Made by a program: the position numbers and the translations under genes. The notes under the pieces are model-generated. The model saw nothing but the letters and a program-made list of their open reading frames with translations. It was not told the origin of the DNA and searched no databases. DNA of 64,000 nt from Escherichia phage ECML-359. The stretch lies in sequence record OL631482.1, one strand, 5' to 3'. Of this stretch, positions 9,022-56,100 are shown piece after piece. Position 1 is the first letter of the stretch. Each line of letters opens with the position of its first letter.

Positions 9022-9049
9022 TTTTAAACTCCAGGTTTTGTTTGTTAAC

Positions 9050-9092
9050 TCAGTATGGAATCATTATGTCTTATCTTAATCTGGTTGTAAAC
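9050..9092 (-). promoter_or_regulatory. Early-type sigma70 promoter (GTTTAC, 18 nt, CATAAT) with conserved leader
   Basis: Minus strand reads GTTTACaaccagattaagataagaCATAATGATTCCATACTGAGTTA upstream of ORF 8740-9021; coordinates approximate. Confidence 0.6.
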
Positions 9093-9098
9093 AACTTT

Positions 9099-9106
9099 TA
9101 TAAATA
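9099..9106 (+). promoter_or_regulatory. Late promoter for gene 24
   Basis: TATAAATA about 27 nt upstream of the gp24 ATG. Confidence 0.75.
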
Positions 9107-17078: not shown

Positions 17079-17126
17079 ATAAAAAGGCCCCAACCAAAAG
17101 GAAGGGGCAAAACCAAAAAATGGTTA

Positions 17127-17303
17127 ACAACACTAGCTAAATTAAAAGTTGGGTCTCGTTCAGTTGCTCTTCTGTATTTTCCGTAACTGGCAAACTCTGA
17201 ACATAATTATAACAGGCGCCCGGATGCACCGGACCTTGGTCTGTATCCACAACCAATGCAGAATCGATTGGAGTTTTACAGACAACACAAATCTTATCTG
17301 ACA
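17127..17303 (-). CDS. Hypothetical Cys-containing mini-protein (about 58 aa)
   Basis: Hand-translated: MSDKICVVCKTPIDSALVVDTDQGPVHPGACYNYVQSLPVTENTEEQLNETQLLI; below the ORF-track length cutoff; coordinates approximate. Confidence 0.3.
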
Positions 17304-17443
17304 TGATTGTCTCCTCAGTTAAACTTACATATCTATTTAGTGCTCTTCATAATAGCAGCACGAGCTTTCATCTCATTAACAATTTCAGTTATTCGGTTTG
17401 CAGAGATAACCATCTCGTCGAGAATCTTACTAATATTTTTCAT

Positions 17444-32184: not shown

Positions 32185-32553
32185 TTATGCGACTTTAATC
32201 CAATTATCTAAATTTAATTCACCTTTAGCTTTCATTTTTTCAATCAGAAGGTCTGCAGTGGTGCGACCATTTTGATACCATGTAACATCTTCAGAATAAC
32301 CAGTTTCTTCATCTTCATAGGTCTTACAACGAATCTTACCCAAAATCAAAGTTTTCAGTTCGTAGGTATCACCAGTAAAAAAGTTTGTTACCATAATTTT
32401 CCAGGAGAAGTCATCAGAAGGACCTTCAGGAGTCATACAACCAACAAATTCAAACTGTTCTTTATACAAGTGCCATTGCATTTCTTTAGTTTCAATGGCT
32501 TTGTAACCGTCGTGGTCTTTACCTTTGATGTATGAGTTAAGATTGATTTTCAT
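32185..32553 (-). CDS. Hypothetical protein
   Basis: 122 aa; preceded by an early-type promoter with the conserved 23-nt leader. Confidence 0.55.
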   Translation of the reverse strand: MKINLNSYIKGKDHDGYKAIETKEMQWHLYKEQFEFVGCMTPEGPSDDFSWKIMVTNFFTGDTYELKTLILGKIRCKTYEDEETGYSEDVTWYQNGRTTADLLIEKMKAKGELNLDNWIKVA

Positions 32554-32589
32554 TTTATTCTCCAGTGTTTTATTGTGTAACTCAGTATG

Positions 32590-32624
32590 GAATCATTATG
32601 CACTGGGCAAATCCTGTTGTAAAC
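32590..32624 (-). promoter_or_regulatory. Early-type promoter with conserved 23-nt leader, upstream of ORF 32185-32553
   Basis: Minus strand reads GTTTACaacaggatttgcccagtgCATAATGATTCCATACTGAGTTAC. Confidence 0.6.
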
Positions 32625-32633
32625 CCCTTTATG

Positions 32634-32663
32634 GAAAATAAAAAAGGGACTCCGAAGAGTCCC
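32634..32663 (-). terminator. Intrinsic terminator after the small basic ORF
   Basis: Minus strand reads GGGACTC-ttcg-GAGTCCC followed by TTTTTTATTTT. Confidence 0.8.
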
Positions 32664-32668
32664 TGAAC

Positions 32669-32830
32669 TTATGCTTTCGGCTTACCAAAGCAAGCTGCAT
32701 CGGCGCGCAATACCGCACGAGCACGAGCCTGAAGTTTATCAGTCACCTGATTGATTCGCTTGTTGGACGCACGCTTGTAACCAGCGCGTTTGGAGGAGCC
32801 ATCAACAACTTTAACTTCTTTCTTAGCCAT
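32669..32830 (-). CDS. Hypothetical small basic protein (53 aa)
   Basis: Hand-translated MAKKEVKVVDGSSKRAGYKRASNKRINQVTDKLQARARAVLRADAACFGKPKA; weak ribosome-binding site; followed by a strong hairpin and U-tract terminator; coordinates approximate. Confidence 0.35.
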   Translation of the reverse strand: MAKKEVKVVDGSSKRAGYKRASNKRINQVTDKLQARARAVLRADAACFGKPKA

Positions 32831-33227
32831 ATTAAATTCTCTTTAAAATAGAAGCAGGACTTATTGGCATTGCCTGCGCAAGCCCTCGAAGGGAACATTA
32901 GGTTTCGGATATTTAACGACAGGATAACCATAAACCTCGTCATCATACCTTATAGCTCTTATCTGTTGCACACCGTTAGCTTAAAGGTTCCGGGTTCGAT
33001 TTCTCGAGGATAAGATATATACTGATGGATATATAGGCCTTGAGGCGTACTCCCGATTGGCCATCACCTCGGGGTAGCATGCACTTGCCGCTATAAGAAT
33101 AACATTCAAGAGGTACACCGTAAAACTGCCGGGGTCTTAAAACTATAATGATTCGCAAATCATTAATCAGACGGTTCGACGGCTCCTCGATTTTCTAGCC
33201 GCACTAAGGTAGCGAATCACCTACAGC

Positions 33228-33482
33228 TTACTTCAGGGTTACGACAAAATGGCGAACAGCTTTACGGGCAGCAGATGCCAGCGGCTTAGCAAATTTCAGT
33301 TCATCTTTTGCTTCGAGCACTGCGCGAAGGTCGGTTTGAACCGGGTTAAGATGTTTGAAATACTGCAGAATTTCCAGTGCTTCGGCTTCAACATCAATAG
33401 ATGCGCCGTAGTTTTCGTGACCGTTATTCCATGCAGTGCGTTGCAGTTCGAGAGCGTGTTGTAATTGTTTGTTTAAAGACAT
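33228..33482 (-). CDS. rIII: rIII lysis-inhibition accessory protein
   Basis: About 84 aa from the internal ATG (MSLNKQLQHALELQRTAWNNGHENYGASIDVEAEALEILQYFKHLNP...), matching T4 rIII as recalled. Confidence 0.85.
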   Translation of the reverse strand: MSLNKQLQHALELQRTAWNNGHENYGASIDVEAEALEILQYFKHLNPVQTDLRAVLEAKDELKFAKPLASAARKAVRHFVVTLK

Positions 33483-33636
33483 TTTAGAAGCCTCAATATG
33501 AGGTGAATATTTGGTGGACACGTTCTTCTGAATTTCACTTCCTTTCGGCAAGTCTCTCAGTTGTAGTCCACCGTTTAGGATTAGCTAACCCCATACACCA
33601 GCAAAGCTCTGTATGACATCAACCAATCCATATTAT

Positions 33637-33644
33637 TATTTATA
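33637..33644 (-). promoter_or_regulatory. Candidate late promoter (TATAAATA on minus strand) upstream of rIII
   Basis: TATAAATA on the minus strand just downstream of the gene 31 stop, about 150 nt upstream of the rIII ATG. Confidence 0.5.
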
Positions 33645-33653
33645 ACGCTAATT

Positions 33654-34001
33654 TTACTTATAAAGACAAGGAACAGCTTTATAATGACAGGTCACAAATT
33701 TCTGCTTAACTTCTTTAGCCTGCTTAAGTCCCAGTGCAACCAGAGGATGTGGAACGTTTGCAATCTTGCCAACCGGAAGAGGAGTCAAATCACCTACTTC
33801 GCAGAATCCTTCAGGAACATCCGGACCAACCGAAAATACTTCACACATCTCCGGGATTTCACCCTGATGGAGTTTTCCGATAACGATACCTGATGCCGTA
33901 GTTTCTTCATCACCAGCTTGCTTTGGCTCAGAAACCAAAATAATATATTCACCTACTGCTTTAATTGGTAATTCCATATTTAATCCATGTTGTTTGGTCA
34001 T
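33654..34001 (-). CDS. 31: Co-chaperonin gp31 (GroES analogue)
   Basis: 115 aa; [18 protein letters not shown]...[16 protein letters not shown]...[15 protein letters not shown] matches T4 gp31. Confidence 0.95.
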
Positions 34002-49802: not shown

Positions 49803-49839
49803 TTTGATTTCCTCGGTTGTTTATCGTGTAACTCAGTAT

Positions 49840-49885
49840 GGAATCATTATGCCTTAGCTCAAAGGACTTGTACACTACTTTTTGA
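49840..49885 (-). promoter_or_regulatory. Early-type promoter with conserved 23-nt leader, upstream of ORF 49437-49802
   Basis: Minus strand reads GTGTACaagtcctttgagctaaggCATAATGATTCCATACTGAGTTAC. Confidence 0.55.
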
Positions 49886-49912
49886 AAATAAAAAAGGGAC
49901 CCGAAGGTCCCC
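49885..49912 (-). terminator. Intrinsic terminator after gene 32
   Basis: Minus strand reads GGGACC-ttcg-GGTCCC followed by TTTTTTATTTT. Confidence 0.85.
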
Positions 49913-53146: not shown

Positions 53147-56100
53147 ATGGCCGATATTTTAAAACCAGCATTCAGAGCAACATCCGGTCTCGATGCTGCT
53201 GGTGAGAAAGTCATTAATGTCGCAAAAGCTGATTACTCAGTTTTATCAGACGGCGTTAACGTAGGTTTCTTTATAGAAGAAAACACAGTTCAACAATATG
53301 ATGCAACACGCGGATACAAAAAGAACTTTGCAGTTATTAATGATAACCGTATTTGGGTTGCTCAACGTGATATTCCGGCACCAGCTGGAGCATTTACCCC
53401 TCAGTATTGGTTAGCAACTCGTACTGACCCGAAATGGGAAACTGTTGCATCTCCAACTCGTCAGCTTAGCTCCGGGGAATTTATCGCAGTCGACTCAGCT
53501 GCAAGCTTTACCACATTTACATTGCCTCCGAACCCGACTGATGGTGATACCATCGTTATTAAAGATATCGGCGGTAATACCGGTTATAATGAAATTAAAA
53601 TCCAGTCAAGCAACGTGCCTGGCCAAGGTAACCAAAAGATTGTTCGCTTTGGTAATCAGTATTCAGAAGTTTTAATTACCAAACCATTCTCTTATAACAT
53701 GCTTATCTTTTCAAACCGCTTATGGCAATTTTGGGAAGCAGGTAACGAAGAACGTGGTATCAGAGTAGAACCGTCGACCGGACGTTTCCATGCACAAGCT
53801 GGCGACTTTATTATGCGTCGTTATACAACTGGTGCACCGATTACTTTCATTCTTCCTAAGTATGCAAACCAGGGTGATATTGTCAAATCTGTTGATATCG
53901 ATGGCATGGGGCCAACGTTCCACCTGATGGTTGAAACCTTTGACACCAGTTCCAGTCTTGGTAAAGCTGGCCAGCATCAAATGGAATTCCGTACCACAGG
54001 TGATGGTTTCTTCGTTTATAATGCTGCCGAAAAACTCTGGTATGTTTGGGACGGTGATTTTAAAACTCGTCTTCGCGTTATTCGCGACAGCGTTAAACTT
54101 TTACCAAACGAAAGTGTCATTGTATTTGGCGAAGATAACTCAACTCCAGCAACGATTAATATCGATTTGCCAACTAATGTTTTGCAAGGCGACATTGTTA
54201 AAATTGCATTGAACTATCTCCGTAAATCACAGACTGTTAATATAAGAGCTGCTGTTGGCGATAAGATTGCAACTGACATTAAATTACTGCAATTCCCTAA
54301 ACGTTCCGAGTATCCACCAGATACAACTTGGGTGCTGGTTGATTCATTGACCTTTAATGGCAACATCAGTTATACTCCGGTTATTGAATTATCATATGCA
54401 GAAGATACAGTGTCTGGAACAAGTTATTGGGTTGTCGCTCAGAACGTCCCGACTGTCGAACGAGTTGACTCATTAAATGATTCCACGCGTGCACGTCTTG
54501 GTGTTATTGCTCTGGCAAACCAGACTCAGGCAAACGTTGACCATGAAAATAACCCAGAAAAAGAACTCGCAATTACCCCTCAGACTTTAGCCAACCGTGT
54601 TGCTAAAGAGAACCAACGAGGCATTGCCAGAATCGCAACGACTGCCCAAGTAAATCAGAACAGTGATTTTGCATTTGTTGATGATGTAATTATTTCTCCG
54701 AAAAAACTCAATGAACGTACGGCAACAGAAACGAGACGTGGACTCGCAGAACTCGCCACACAGCAAGAAACCGATGCGGGTGTAGATGATACCACAATTA
54801 TAACTCCAAAGAAACTGCAAGCTCGCCAGGGCTCAGAATCGCTATCCGGTATTGTAACTTACGTTTCAACGACTGGTGCAACTCCTGCTGCTTCGCGTGA
54901 ATTAAATGGTACAAACGTTTATAATAAAAATACGGTTAATCTGGTTGTTTCTCCGAAAGCTCTTGACCAGTACAAAGCTACTTACACTCAACAAGGTGCG
55001 GTTATTCTTGCGGTTGAAAGTGAAGTAATCGCTGGTACTTCTCAATCTGGCTGGGCAAACGCAGTCGTTACTCCAGAAATGTTGCATCGCAAAACTGCTC
55101 TTGATTCCCGTATCGGTTTAATCGAGATTGCTACTCAGGTTGAAACAGATGCAGGAACCGATTATACCAGAGCTGTGACTCCTAAAACGTTAAATGACCG
55201 TAAAGCATCAGAAACGTTAACCGGCATAGCCGAGATTGCTACGCAATCAGAATTTGATACTGGAACTGATGATACTCGTATCTCAACTCCATTAAAAATT
55301 AAAAATAGATTTAATAATACTGCTCGTACTTCTGTTAATGCATTAAGTGGTTTAGTAGAAACAGGGACGCTCTGGGACCATTATAGCCTGAATATTCTTG
55401 AAGCAAATGAAACTCAACGTGGTACAGCAAGATTAGCGACTCAGGGTGAAGTCAATACAGGCACTGACGATAAAACAATCGTTACTCCGCTTAAATTGAT
55501 GTCGAAAAAAGCCACTGAAAACGCCGAAGGTATTGTTCGCATCGCGACAAACACAGAAGCAACAGCAGGCACATCAAAAGTCTTGGCCATTAGTCCGTCT
55601 GCGCTGAAATATATTGCCCAAACGGAAACAACTTGGGAAGCATCTGAAACACTGCGTGGATTTGTTCGTTTATCTTCCGGTGCAGCTACTTCGGCCGCAA
55701 CTACAACGACGGGCGCGGGATTTACATATGAAAATGGTGTGTATACCCCGGACCCAAGTAAACTGGTTAGCTATGCGAAATCTGGATATGCAGTTTCGCC
55801 TTACGAATTAAACCGCATATTGCAAAACTTCTTACCGATAAATGCGATGGCTGTTAATGCTGAAAAACTGGATAACCTCGATTCGACCCAGTTTATTCGT
55901 CGTGATATTGCTCAGACCGTTGAAGGCGTATTAACCCTTACTAAGCAGACAAATATCTCTGCTCCGGTTGTATCGACGAGCACTGCGGTGTTTACTGATG
56001 TAACGGCTGGTACTTCGACGTTCGGAACTGTGAATGTTGTTAATGGAACTAACAAGTGGAAAATCACTGCTCCTTCCACCGGAACGACAATGACTATTGG

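Follow-up and report, generated by a model that had tools for sequence, protein, structure and literature searches.

The spacer between the genes rIII and 30.9 of Escherichia phage ECML-359 (sequence record OL631482.1) is non-coding and is composed of several structured RNA modules, one of which is homologous to ToxI, the RNA antitoxin that neutralizes ToxN in type III toxin-antitoxin systems. Here, we analysed this spacer within a stretch of 64,000 nucleotides (nt), referred to below as the window, and compared it with the corresponding locus of other T4-like phages. The RNA folds belong to the minus strand, on which every gene of the rIII-30.9 neighbourhood lies, and the modules are shuffled between genomes. 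We consider it reasonably probable that the spacer is a multi-module structured RNA co-transcribed with rIII and 30.9, and that its ToxI-like unit serves as an antitoxin mimic against ToxN-mediated abortive infection; transcription of the spacer, binding of ToxN and any function of two further modules, termed the core and M2, are what we infer in this explanation. Phage T4 is the reference lytic phage, and ToxIN acting against T4 is a current model of abortive infection. The locus matters since it is present in T4 itself, bears on an actively studied defence and yields two RNA folds without a match in Rfam. The window comes from a T4-like phage with about 99.5% identity to Escherichia phages pEC-M719-6WT.2 and vB_EcoM_RZ, and the Gaprivervirus phages VR7 and SP18 are its close relatives.

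The ToxI-like unit (pseudo-ToxI) is a single 34-nt sequence, AGGUGAUUCGCUACCUUAGUGCGGCUAGAAAAUC, at 33189..33222 on the minus strand. It begins 5 nt past the rIII stop codon and was recognised by BLAST, by reciprocal search and by covariation of its pseudoknot. When a 48-nt query spanning the unit was compared with plasmids by BLAST, it matched 13 places in Pectobacterium atrosepticum, 10 in Lelliottia and 7 in Hafnia, and two places each in plasmids of E. coli and E. albertii. Identity to the arrays of toxN plasmids was 85% over 39 nt, and 85-88% over the repeat of about 36 nt. In the two plasmids inspected we found tandem arrays of AGGTGATTCGCTACCTT(T)AAGTGCGGGACGAAAATCC with 13 and 4 units, both directly upstream of, and co-oriented with, genes annotated as 'type III toxin-antitoxin system ToxN/AbiQ family toxin'; the phage unit has the orientation that toxI has relative to toxN. 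The reciprocal search, in which two bacterial ToxI units were compared with a phage collection, retrieved the site downstream of rIII in T4-like phages, and also the annotated pseudo-ToxI of Pectobacterium phage PhiTE, which served as the positive control. No cognate toxN lies downstream of the unit, whose flanks are rIII and 30.9; therefore it is not a bona fide toxin-antitoxin locus and fits only the orphan, phage-borne form. The sequence directly after the unit, AUCGAGGAG, resembles only about the first 10 nt of a second unit (AUCCAGGUG). Judged from its sequence, the window element is an orphan ToxI unit of about 1.3 repeats kept under structural constraint. T4 carries its own ToxI-shaped variant, unannotated, at about 130744-130778 of NC_000866. 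A search of the whole gap against Rfam 15 gave no match at the gathering score or at E ≤ 10, a silence that carries no weight for ToxI because the genuine plasmid ToxI arrays were missed as well. These arrays are missed even at E ≤ 1, so that screens based on Rfam in effect overlook type III antitoxins.

The ToxI fold can be followed through the phage variants. We numbered the unit so that C27, U28 and U17 sit as in PMC3475682, and we derived the pairing register from the sequences together with the loop-length pattern of PMC3401426, not from the crystal structure. In ToxI homologues this pattern comprises a short loop between 2a and 1b and a long loop between 1b and 2b (PMC3401426), and it is matched by the interleaved helices 2-4/13-15 and 9-11/23-25. 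In 17 variants from phages and bacteria the pseudoknot positions are 94.1% paired, as against 19-66% in slid controls. Helix 9-11/23-25 (stem 2) is paired in 100% of cases and two of its three positions are compensatory, the helix being CGC/GCG in the window, CAC/GUG in T4, UGC/GCA in Klebsiella phages and AGC/GCU in another variant. Stem 1 (2-4/13-15) is 88% paired, and its position 2:15 changes from G:C to A:U in three phages. Both C27 and U28, either of which when mutated abolishes ToxI activity (PMC3475682), are kept in the window unit. On the 3′ side GAAAAUC is present, so an AAAU motif follows the unit. We take this motif to be the AA^AU context in which ToxN cleaves.

The closest known thing to the window element is the pseudo-ToxI of PhiTE (PMC3475682; non-coding RNA at 106714-106772 of NC_020201), whose kind it joins in a different virus family. 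Both are toxin-less intergenic ToxI copies in the sense orientation, carried by a lytic myovirus; both consist of about one unit plus a partial second, and the two-stem pseudoknot has the same register in both. The PhiTE element comprises 1.5 GGGACG-type units and protects only after expansion to 4.5-5.5 units or after toxI recombination, whereas the window has one unit of the GCUAG type (C27 U28) with the shortened loop CCUUAG, placed inside an mRNA spacer beside other structured modules and conserved with compensatory variation across several T4-like genera. With the bacterial ToxIN arrays (P. atrosepticum pPA21A, E. coli pU90-1) the window element shares the unit sequence, the pseudoknot pairs and the A-rich AAAU tail at which ToxN cuts; those arrays, however, repeat the unit 4-13 times in tandem with a promoter and a terminator of their own and are directly followed by toxN, while the phage carries a single unit without a toxin gene. 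The third system to be compared is TifA (T4 gp61.4; PMC9391042, PMC10853763), which has the same presumed target, ToxN, and occurs in the same phage group. TifA is a protein encoded at another locus and works by a different mechanism, trapping ToxN on RNA. The two TifA papers make no mention of a toxI-like sequence near rIII. In the literature we found neither a toxI-like element nor a structured RNA described for the rIII/30.9 interval, the work of the Laub laboratory on T4 and toxIN and that of the Salmond laboratory on the T4 family included, although this coverage is incomplete and a prior description is possible.

Orphan single ToxI-like units were also observed in T5-like, SE131-like and KP2025 phages. 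On sequence grounds, such units seem widespread in unrelated lytic phages, and if the unit of the T4-like phages works they would point to a wider use of antitoxin mimicry. Salmonella phage SE131 (MG873442, about 53236-53295) has one complete ToxI unit of the AGGTGATTTGCTACCTTTAAGTGCAGCTAGAAAT type with AAATTC before it. This unit directly precedes an intrinsic terminator (GCCCTCTTCGGAGGGC and a T run) in an unannotated spacer between two genes, and it looks like a stand-alone small RNA gene. In Vibrio phage JSF10 a ToxI-like unit lies between tRNA-Lys and tRNA-Arg, and in Klebsiella phage KP2025 1.5 units lie between tRNA-Leu and tRNA-Val, in both cases co-oriented with the tRNAs. The pseudo-ToxI of PhiTE is followed by a tRNA-like T-arm sequence, GGTTCGAACC.

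The gap that holds the unit measures 397 base pairs (bp), 32831-33227, and extends exactly from the rIII stop to the 30.9 start. The original prediction, made from the sequence of the window without database searches, had described about 400 bp without a credible open reading frame (ORF) after rIII, and this description was accurate in its coordinates as well: the longest ORF has 60 codons and none is conserved in relatives. The 60-codon ORF, which runs on the minus strand from a TTG (32976-33158), had been called implausible, and it has no Pfam or PHROG match. In 18 homologues of the central 147 nt (the core) there is at least one stop in each of the six frames, and the homologue lengths (144, 146, 147, 148 and 154 nt) show differences that are not multiples of three. 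Given the six-frame stops in all 18, the non-triplet indels and the lack of any Pfam or PHROG family, the gap shows no sign of a gene or pseudogene. Repeats of the gap were not found elsewhere in the window. The original prediction had failed to fold a tRNA cloverleaf here by eye, and ARAGORN likewise finds no tRNA or tmRNA. Its proposal of a structured RNA was sound in substance, as three modules carry compensatory changes far above shuffled and slid controls, but the premise of a GC-rich island of about 55% does not hold: the gap has 43.8% G+C and the window 41.1%, and a single 50-nt bin reaches 56%.

It is extremely improbable that the segment is a decayed protein gene, or the remnant of a mobile element or a homing-endonuclease scar, the last two of which had been suggested in the original prediction. 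A presence/absence polymorphism of the core, with three alleles at one site, would suit such an origin, as would the small ORFs annotated in the gap in some GenBank records. Yet neither an ORF remnant nor a family match was found, no frame is open in any of the 18 core homologues, and the core occurs once per genome and at the rIII/30.9 locus only. The helix substitutions are compensatory, and the inverted repeat that flanks the core is itself a covarying RNA helix (P1, below). A gene frameshifted only in this genome is also contradicted by the relatives, the T4 reference included, which share an unannotated gap of 244-398 bp with no intact gene in any of them. Several phage records label the gap as '1,4-alpha-glucan (glycogen) branching enzyme', and others place hypothetical ORFs of 30-60 codons in it (among the records concerned are PQ341120, OL362041, PP445228, OR352952, OR539220 and ON229909); these annotations look spurious and can be corrected.

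The core (32950..33096, minus strand) is a structured RNA of 147 nt in which alignment and RNAalifold give seven helices, P1-P7. P1, formed by the flanks of the core, closes a four-way junction without unpaired nucleotides, the other arms being P2-P3, P4 and P5. P2-P3 is a long arm with the conserved internal loop AAG-GCAU / CUCAAG, while P5 bears P6 and P7, the latter with an invariant AGCUAA in its loop; the four-base loop of P6 reads GAAA or GUAA in the majority of sequences, with UAAA or UAAU in a few. The invariant single-stranded stretches include AAG-GCAU, AGCUAA and GCAACA. P4 is the ATATAT hairpin that had already been noticed in the original prediction, and it shows compensatory changes. 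The comparison of 18 distinct sequences gave 44 base pairs, with 97.7% of pair cells standard (28-42% in slid controls). Half of these pairs (22/44) are changed on both sides, every one of the seven helices has at least one compensatory pair, and none of 500 shuffles reached any of the five measures used. Apart from the two most distant cases, phages that share 65-78% identity with the window in rIII and 64-75% in 30.9 share 77-93% in the core stretch with its closing stem.

About 45 of the 789 pair cells of the core are G-U, and on the opposite strand these would be A-C. Since the G-U pairs and the GNRA-type loops (GAAA/GUAA) exist on the minus strand only, the core is a minus-strand RNA. The same observations speak against the view that the conserved elements act as DNA, that is, as a replication origin, a recombination hotspot or protein-binding sites. 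The shuffling of modules does imply frequent recombination at the locus, T4-type genomes have recombination-prone regulatory cassettes, and a promoter-like repeat lies nearby (32578-32636); however, the G-U cells and the sense-strand loops argue for RNA, and pseudoknots and a four-way junction kept by compensatory change are not demanded of double-stranded DNA. We regard a DNA-level function as very remote.

The core is not a common element. A covariance model built from its alignment found one copy in the window (176 bits) and none in T4- or VR7-type loci, in ToxIN plasmids or elsewhere in the window, and T4 and VR7 lack the core altogether. An invariant 20-mer of the core, GCTAAYGGTGNGCAACAGAT, occurs in IMG/VR only on contigs of about 93-178 kilobases (kb), T4-like in size; in metagenomes it gave 14 near-identical T4-like copies and two chance matches, with no added diversity, and in 100,044 bacterial and archaeal species genomes (one each) it had 0 matches. 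The core matches no Rfam family at E ≤ 10, and together with M2 it stands outside every curated Rfam family.

The perfect junction, the conserved loops and the dockable tetraloop of the core suggest, by resemblance, a compact tertiary fold, and we presume it to be comparable with four-way-junction RNAs with docking loops, such as the hairpin ribozyme, and with GNRA tetraloop/receptor folds. What the core has in common with such RNAs is a junction in which every nucleotide is paired, a GNRA-type hairpin and two arms whose internal loops are conserved; what sets it apart is the lack of any Rfam match and loop sequences that differ from known catalytic loops. These features, the long invariant single-stranded stretches and a position upstream of a structured ribosome-binding region would be in keeping with a self-cleaving ribozyme that processes the transcript, or with a riboswitch-like aptamer that controls 30.9. 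Such a function nevertheless appears quite unlikely: no ribozyme or riboswitch of Rfam was matched even at E = 10, the distance from the core to 30.9 and the intervening modules vary, and T4 and VR7, which have no core, nonetheless express the same arrangement of genes. Two other ideas were rejected. Inspection by eye of a tertiary pairing of the AAGUGCAU loop with GCAACA found no support in the variation at column 14, and a reading of the optional core as a group I intron has no Rfam support and meets with a different architecture.

M2 is an H-type pseudoknot of 48 nt (32901..32948, minus strand), defined by an alignment of 26 variants and preceded by a conserved GUAUGAUG. Its stem S1 is formed by GAC-G-AGG with CCUGUC and its stem S2 by GGUU with AACC, S2 reaching up to 7 bp in other phages; a 2-nt loop separates S2 from the return strand of S1, and the third loop, CGUUAAAUAUCCG, which is A-rich and 13-14 nt long (CGU(U/A)AAA...), crosses the structure. 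Among the 26 variants 82.7% of cells are paired, in comparison to 34-49% in slid controls, and the covariation score is 0.42 against 0.17 for shuffled alignments. Compensatory pairs make up 4/6 of S1 and 5/7 of S2. Two of the five shuffle measures were not exceeded, so the support is good but weaker than that of the core. We conclude that the core and M2 each fold as an independent RNA and are subject to strong purifying selection.

In its layout M2 resembles the ToxI-family pseudoknots (PMC3401426), with stem 1, a short linker, stem 2, a 2-nt loop and an A-rich loop of 13-14 nt with AAAU. It differs from ToxI in having no sequence similarity, longer stems (6-7 bp), no tandem arrangement in any case and no bacterial homologue that we could find. 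BLAST of six M2 variants against plasmids gave nothing significant, and neither plasmids nor the 5,426 complete E. coli genomes searched had a BLAST match to the non-ToxI part of the gap. A degenerate M2 pattern in the bacterial genomes among the 100,044 species gave 35 matches, which equals the number estimated for chance, and none had the M2 fold. Ten of these 35 matches are a conserved Methylobacter/Methylococcaceae element, AATAATCCTC(C/T)CGTTAAA(T/C)A(A/G)GCAAAACAAG, unrelated to the M2 fold.

The arrangement of the modules was followed across T4-like phages by gap alignment, BLAST of pieces and profile search. In total, 998 phage records match part of the gap, and an unannotated interval between 30.9 and rIII, which we regard as ancient, is common to many genera, none of the relatives examined having an intact gene in it. 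The gap measures 244 bp in the T4 reference (Tequatrovirus; NC_000866, 130541-130784), 296 bp in VR7 (Gaprivervirus), 317 bp in PG7 (Karamvirus), 321 bp in EcS1 (Kagamiyamavirus), 291 bp in PEi20 (Kanagawavirus), 332 bp in Cronus (Roskildevirus) and 338 bp in Klebsiella phage TNG87, whose record gives no genus. In the window the order along the minus-strand RNA, 5′ to 3′, is the ToxI-like unit, a stretch of three hairpins, the core, M2, the S hairpin, a stem-loop and the 30.9 leader. Of 50 rIII loci from IMG/VR, 39 contain M2 (the most widespread module, present also in T4), 20 contain the ToxI-like unit and 20 the core, and the modules follow one another in no fewer than five orders; 11 more distant T4-like contigs among these loci have none of the three. 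Klebsiella phages have the order M2, ToxI-like unit, core, and in other phages the orders are core-M2, M2-core or M2-ToxI-like unit. An alignment of the rIII to 30.x interval across T4-like phages, which the original prediction had proposed as a check for an insertion and for compensatory change, shows the core to be optional and the substitutions in its helices to be compensatory. The spacer modules are separate units that are present or absent independently and are exchanged as cassettes.

Three alleles occur at a single insertion site, flanked by CUCUUGAAUGU and AUGAUG: it is empty in T4, holds the core in the window, SP18 and U115, and holds a module termed M5 in VR7 and its relatives; the empty state counts as the third because T4 has neither core nor M5. 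M5 was observed as a structured module with an outer stem ACUAUCACG...CGUGGUUGGU and an inner hairpin CAGA/UCUG, and it covaries with the variant of one relative (GGCUCUA/UAGAGCUC, CAGC/GCUG). As a ranked guess, the core and M2 most likely have an accessory role, either as a counter-defence decoy or as an element that processes or stabilises the transcript, and we rank this above a ribozyme or riboswitch. A bolder proposal, which we hold to be possible but unlikely, is that the spacer is an RNA counter-defence island, in which pseudo-ToxI, M2, the core and M5 would each be a decoy or inhibitor of a different host RNA-binding immune effector, with the cassettes exchanged between phage genera by recombination, as happens with anti-defence genes that encode proteins. 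If that were true, the core would found a new class of structured anti-immune RNAs.

Around these modules lie several local hairpins, all on the minus strand. Between the ToxI-like unit and the core there are three, in a stretch whose variation is too low for a covariation test. The first (33176..33190) is a possible hairpin, UCGA-GGAGCCG-UCGA, read from the sequence and kept in T4; immediately 3′ of the ToxI-like unit, it holds in its loop GGAG, the cleavage motif of the T4 endoribonuclease RegB, and a role of this hairpin in processing would be speculation. RIII is reported to modulate RegB through ribosomal protein S1 (PMC9409239). The second, AAUGAUU-UGCG-AAUCAUU (33147..33164), is conserved in the T4 and Gaprivervirus lineages. 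The third, ACCCCG-GCAGUUUUA-CGGUGU (33115..33135), has weak support, a variant with ACCUCG/UGGUGU being pairable via G-U pairs only. The original prediction had paired GATTCGC with GCGAATC over a long range, but this pairing is not conserved: T4 has GATTCAC uncompensated, and the pairing is gone where the hairpin is absent. The GATTCGC arm belongs to the ToxI-like pseudoknot and the GCGAATC arm to the second local hairpin. The same prediction was silent on the ToxI homology and on the minus, gene-sense strand as the relevant one.

Downstream of M2 the CCCTcgaAGGG hairpin, also noticed earlier, proved to be real and to covary. This S hairpin, GUUCCCUUCGAGGGCUUG (32879..32896), is conserved, and its stem varies as CCC/GGG, CCUC/GAGG and GCC/GGC; it stands directly after the rIII stop in some phages and beside 30.9 in others. 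It is followed by a stem-loop GCAGG...CCUGC with a variable interior (32854..32877). The stem is kept across genera, in which it reads GGGAGC/GCUCCC, GGCGA/UCGCC or GAACUGG/CCAGUUC around an interior of about 14 to about 50 nt. The leader and ribosome-binding region of 30.9, up to the ATG (32828..32853), contains a pairable UUCU...AGAGAA, and other genera have analogous UCUCC...GGAAGA pairings. The hairpins by the 30.9 start probably tune the translation of 30.9.

The upstream gene of the unit, rIII (33228..33482, minus strand), encodes the lysis-inhibition accessory protein (phrog_1457, E = 2.4e-42) and is so named in the annotation of near-identical phages. The downstream gene, 30.9 (32669..32830, minus strand), encodes a small, very basic protein that matches phrog_1427 (E = 2.9e-26), a PHROG family without assigned function, and a Pfam search with it gave no family. 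A terminator scan found an intrinsic terminator 3′ of 30.9 (32635..32664, minus strand) with an 8-bp stem, a UUCG loop and a U tract, and this is the probable 3′ end of the rIII-30.9 unit. A T4-type late-promoter motif, TATAAATA, can be read upstream of rIII (33628..33644, minus strand), and it is likely one source of a transcript that crosses the rIII/30.9 gap. In T4, rIII is reported to be driven by early, middle and late promoters (PMC9409239).

We consider the following course of events the most likely. The spacer would be transcribed with rIII and 30.9, the transcript ending at the terminator 32664-32635. Shut-off of host transcription would deplete the labile bacterial ToxI and free the ToxN endoribonuclease. 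The phage transcript would then offer a pseudoknot of ToxI shape, with AAAU as the tail for cleavage and binding, and its ToxI-like unit would occupy ToxN, so that abortive infection would be blunted. A precedent is the pseudo-ToxI of PhiTE, which is expressed and suppresses ToxN after expansion (PMC3475682).

Several findings weigh against such a function. In the T4-lineage copy one of the three stem 1 pairs is broken. On the 5′ side the window unit lacks AAAU, having GCUGU in its place, and there is no tandem repetition, a single unit in the window standing against 4-13 in bacterial arrays. ToxI-like DNA is rare in the host, being found in 2 of the 5,426 complete E. coli genomes. The 1.5 units of wild-type PhiTE did not protect, and a single cloned pseudo-ToxI unit did not inhibit ToxN (PMC3475682). 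Wild-type T4 is restricted by E. coli toxIN and escapes by amplification of tifA, not through the rIII/30.9 locus, which argues that inhibition by the unit is at best partial or specific; the unit may fit other ToxN homologues instead or bring no more than partial relief. Thermodynamics is neutral, as the minimum free energy of the whole gap is no better than that of shuffles (z = -0.11); the evidence for structure is comparative, not thermodynamic. Finally, the core and M2 have no bacterial counterpart in the searches described above, which leaves a decoy role for these two modules without direct support.

Some of these points would be accommodated if the spacer were simply the 3′ untranslated region of rIII joined to the leader of 30.9, its hairpins setting mRNA stability, processing by RNases (RegB at GGAG) and translation of 30.9, with the ToxI piece a neutral relic of recombination with a toxIN plasmid. 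The spacer does lie between two co-oriented genes with one terminator after 30.9, its pairing is able to mask the ribosome-binding region of 30.9, and GGAG sits in a hairpin loop; PhiTE-F shows that recombination between phage and toxI is possible, and toxIN is not countered by wild-type T4. A relic, however, should decay, yet the pairs of the ToxI pseudoknot are compensated in several genera, and the ToxI module moves independently of its neighbours. Single ToxI-like units in unrelated lytic phages, in quite different contexts, are not what would be expected of it either, and the core outconserves the flanking coding sequence and yet is optional (none in T4 or VR7), unlike a required leader element. 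We therefore think this account improbable, though less so than the ribozyme or riboswitch, and favour the structured RNA with an antitoxin mimic. RNA mimicry of antitoxins has to date been shown in PhiTE alone; if the unit works, such mimicry may be old and common among phages, and the unit would form a second, RNA-based layer beside TifA. In the core and M2, the locus of one of the best-studied genomes holds well-supported structured RNAs outside Rfam.

The surroundings of the unit show some further features. Upstream, gp31 is encoded at 33654-34001 (minus strand), and the gp31/rIII spacer (33483-33653, 171 nt), inside which the late-promoter motif lies, is non-coding too, so that further structure is possible there. 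Downstream lies 30.8 (32185-32553, minus strand; PF06019). In Shigella phage SP18 an additional gene, 30.6A (116 amino acids), is inserted between 30.8 and 30.9 of the SP18 locus, and the rIII-30.9 neighbourhood is therefore plastic. A family of three direct repeats, TAACTCAGTATGGAATCATTATG...TTGTAAAC, occurs at 32578-32636, 9046-9104 and 49829-49887 of the window, and its minus-strand reading is that of a sigma-70/T4-early-type promoter. Because the copy at 32578-32636, outside the gap, is such a promoter-like repeat, BLAST of the wider region finds several places per phage genome. In this tightly packed genome the gap stands out: among the stretches of at least 200 nt in the 64-kb window, only one besides the gap lacks an ATG ORF of at least 60 codons. 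This second ORF-poor stretch, at 17079-17302, appears to consist of a hairpin of terminator type and, after it, a short ORF on the minus strand with its start at 17305.

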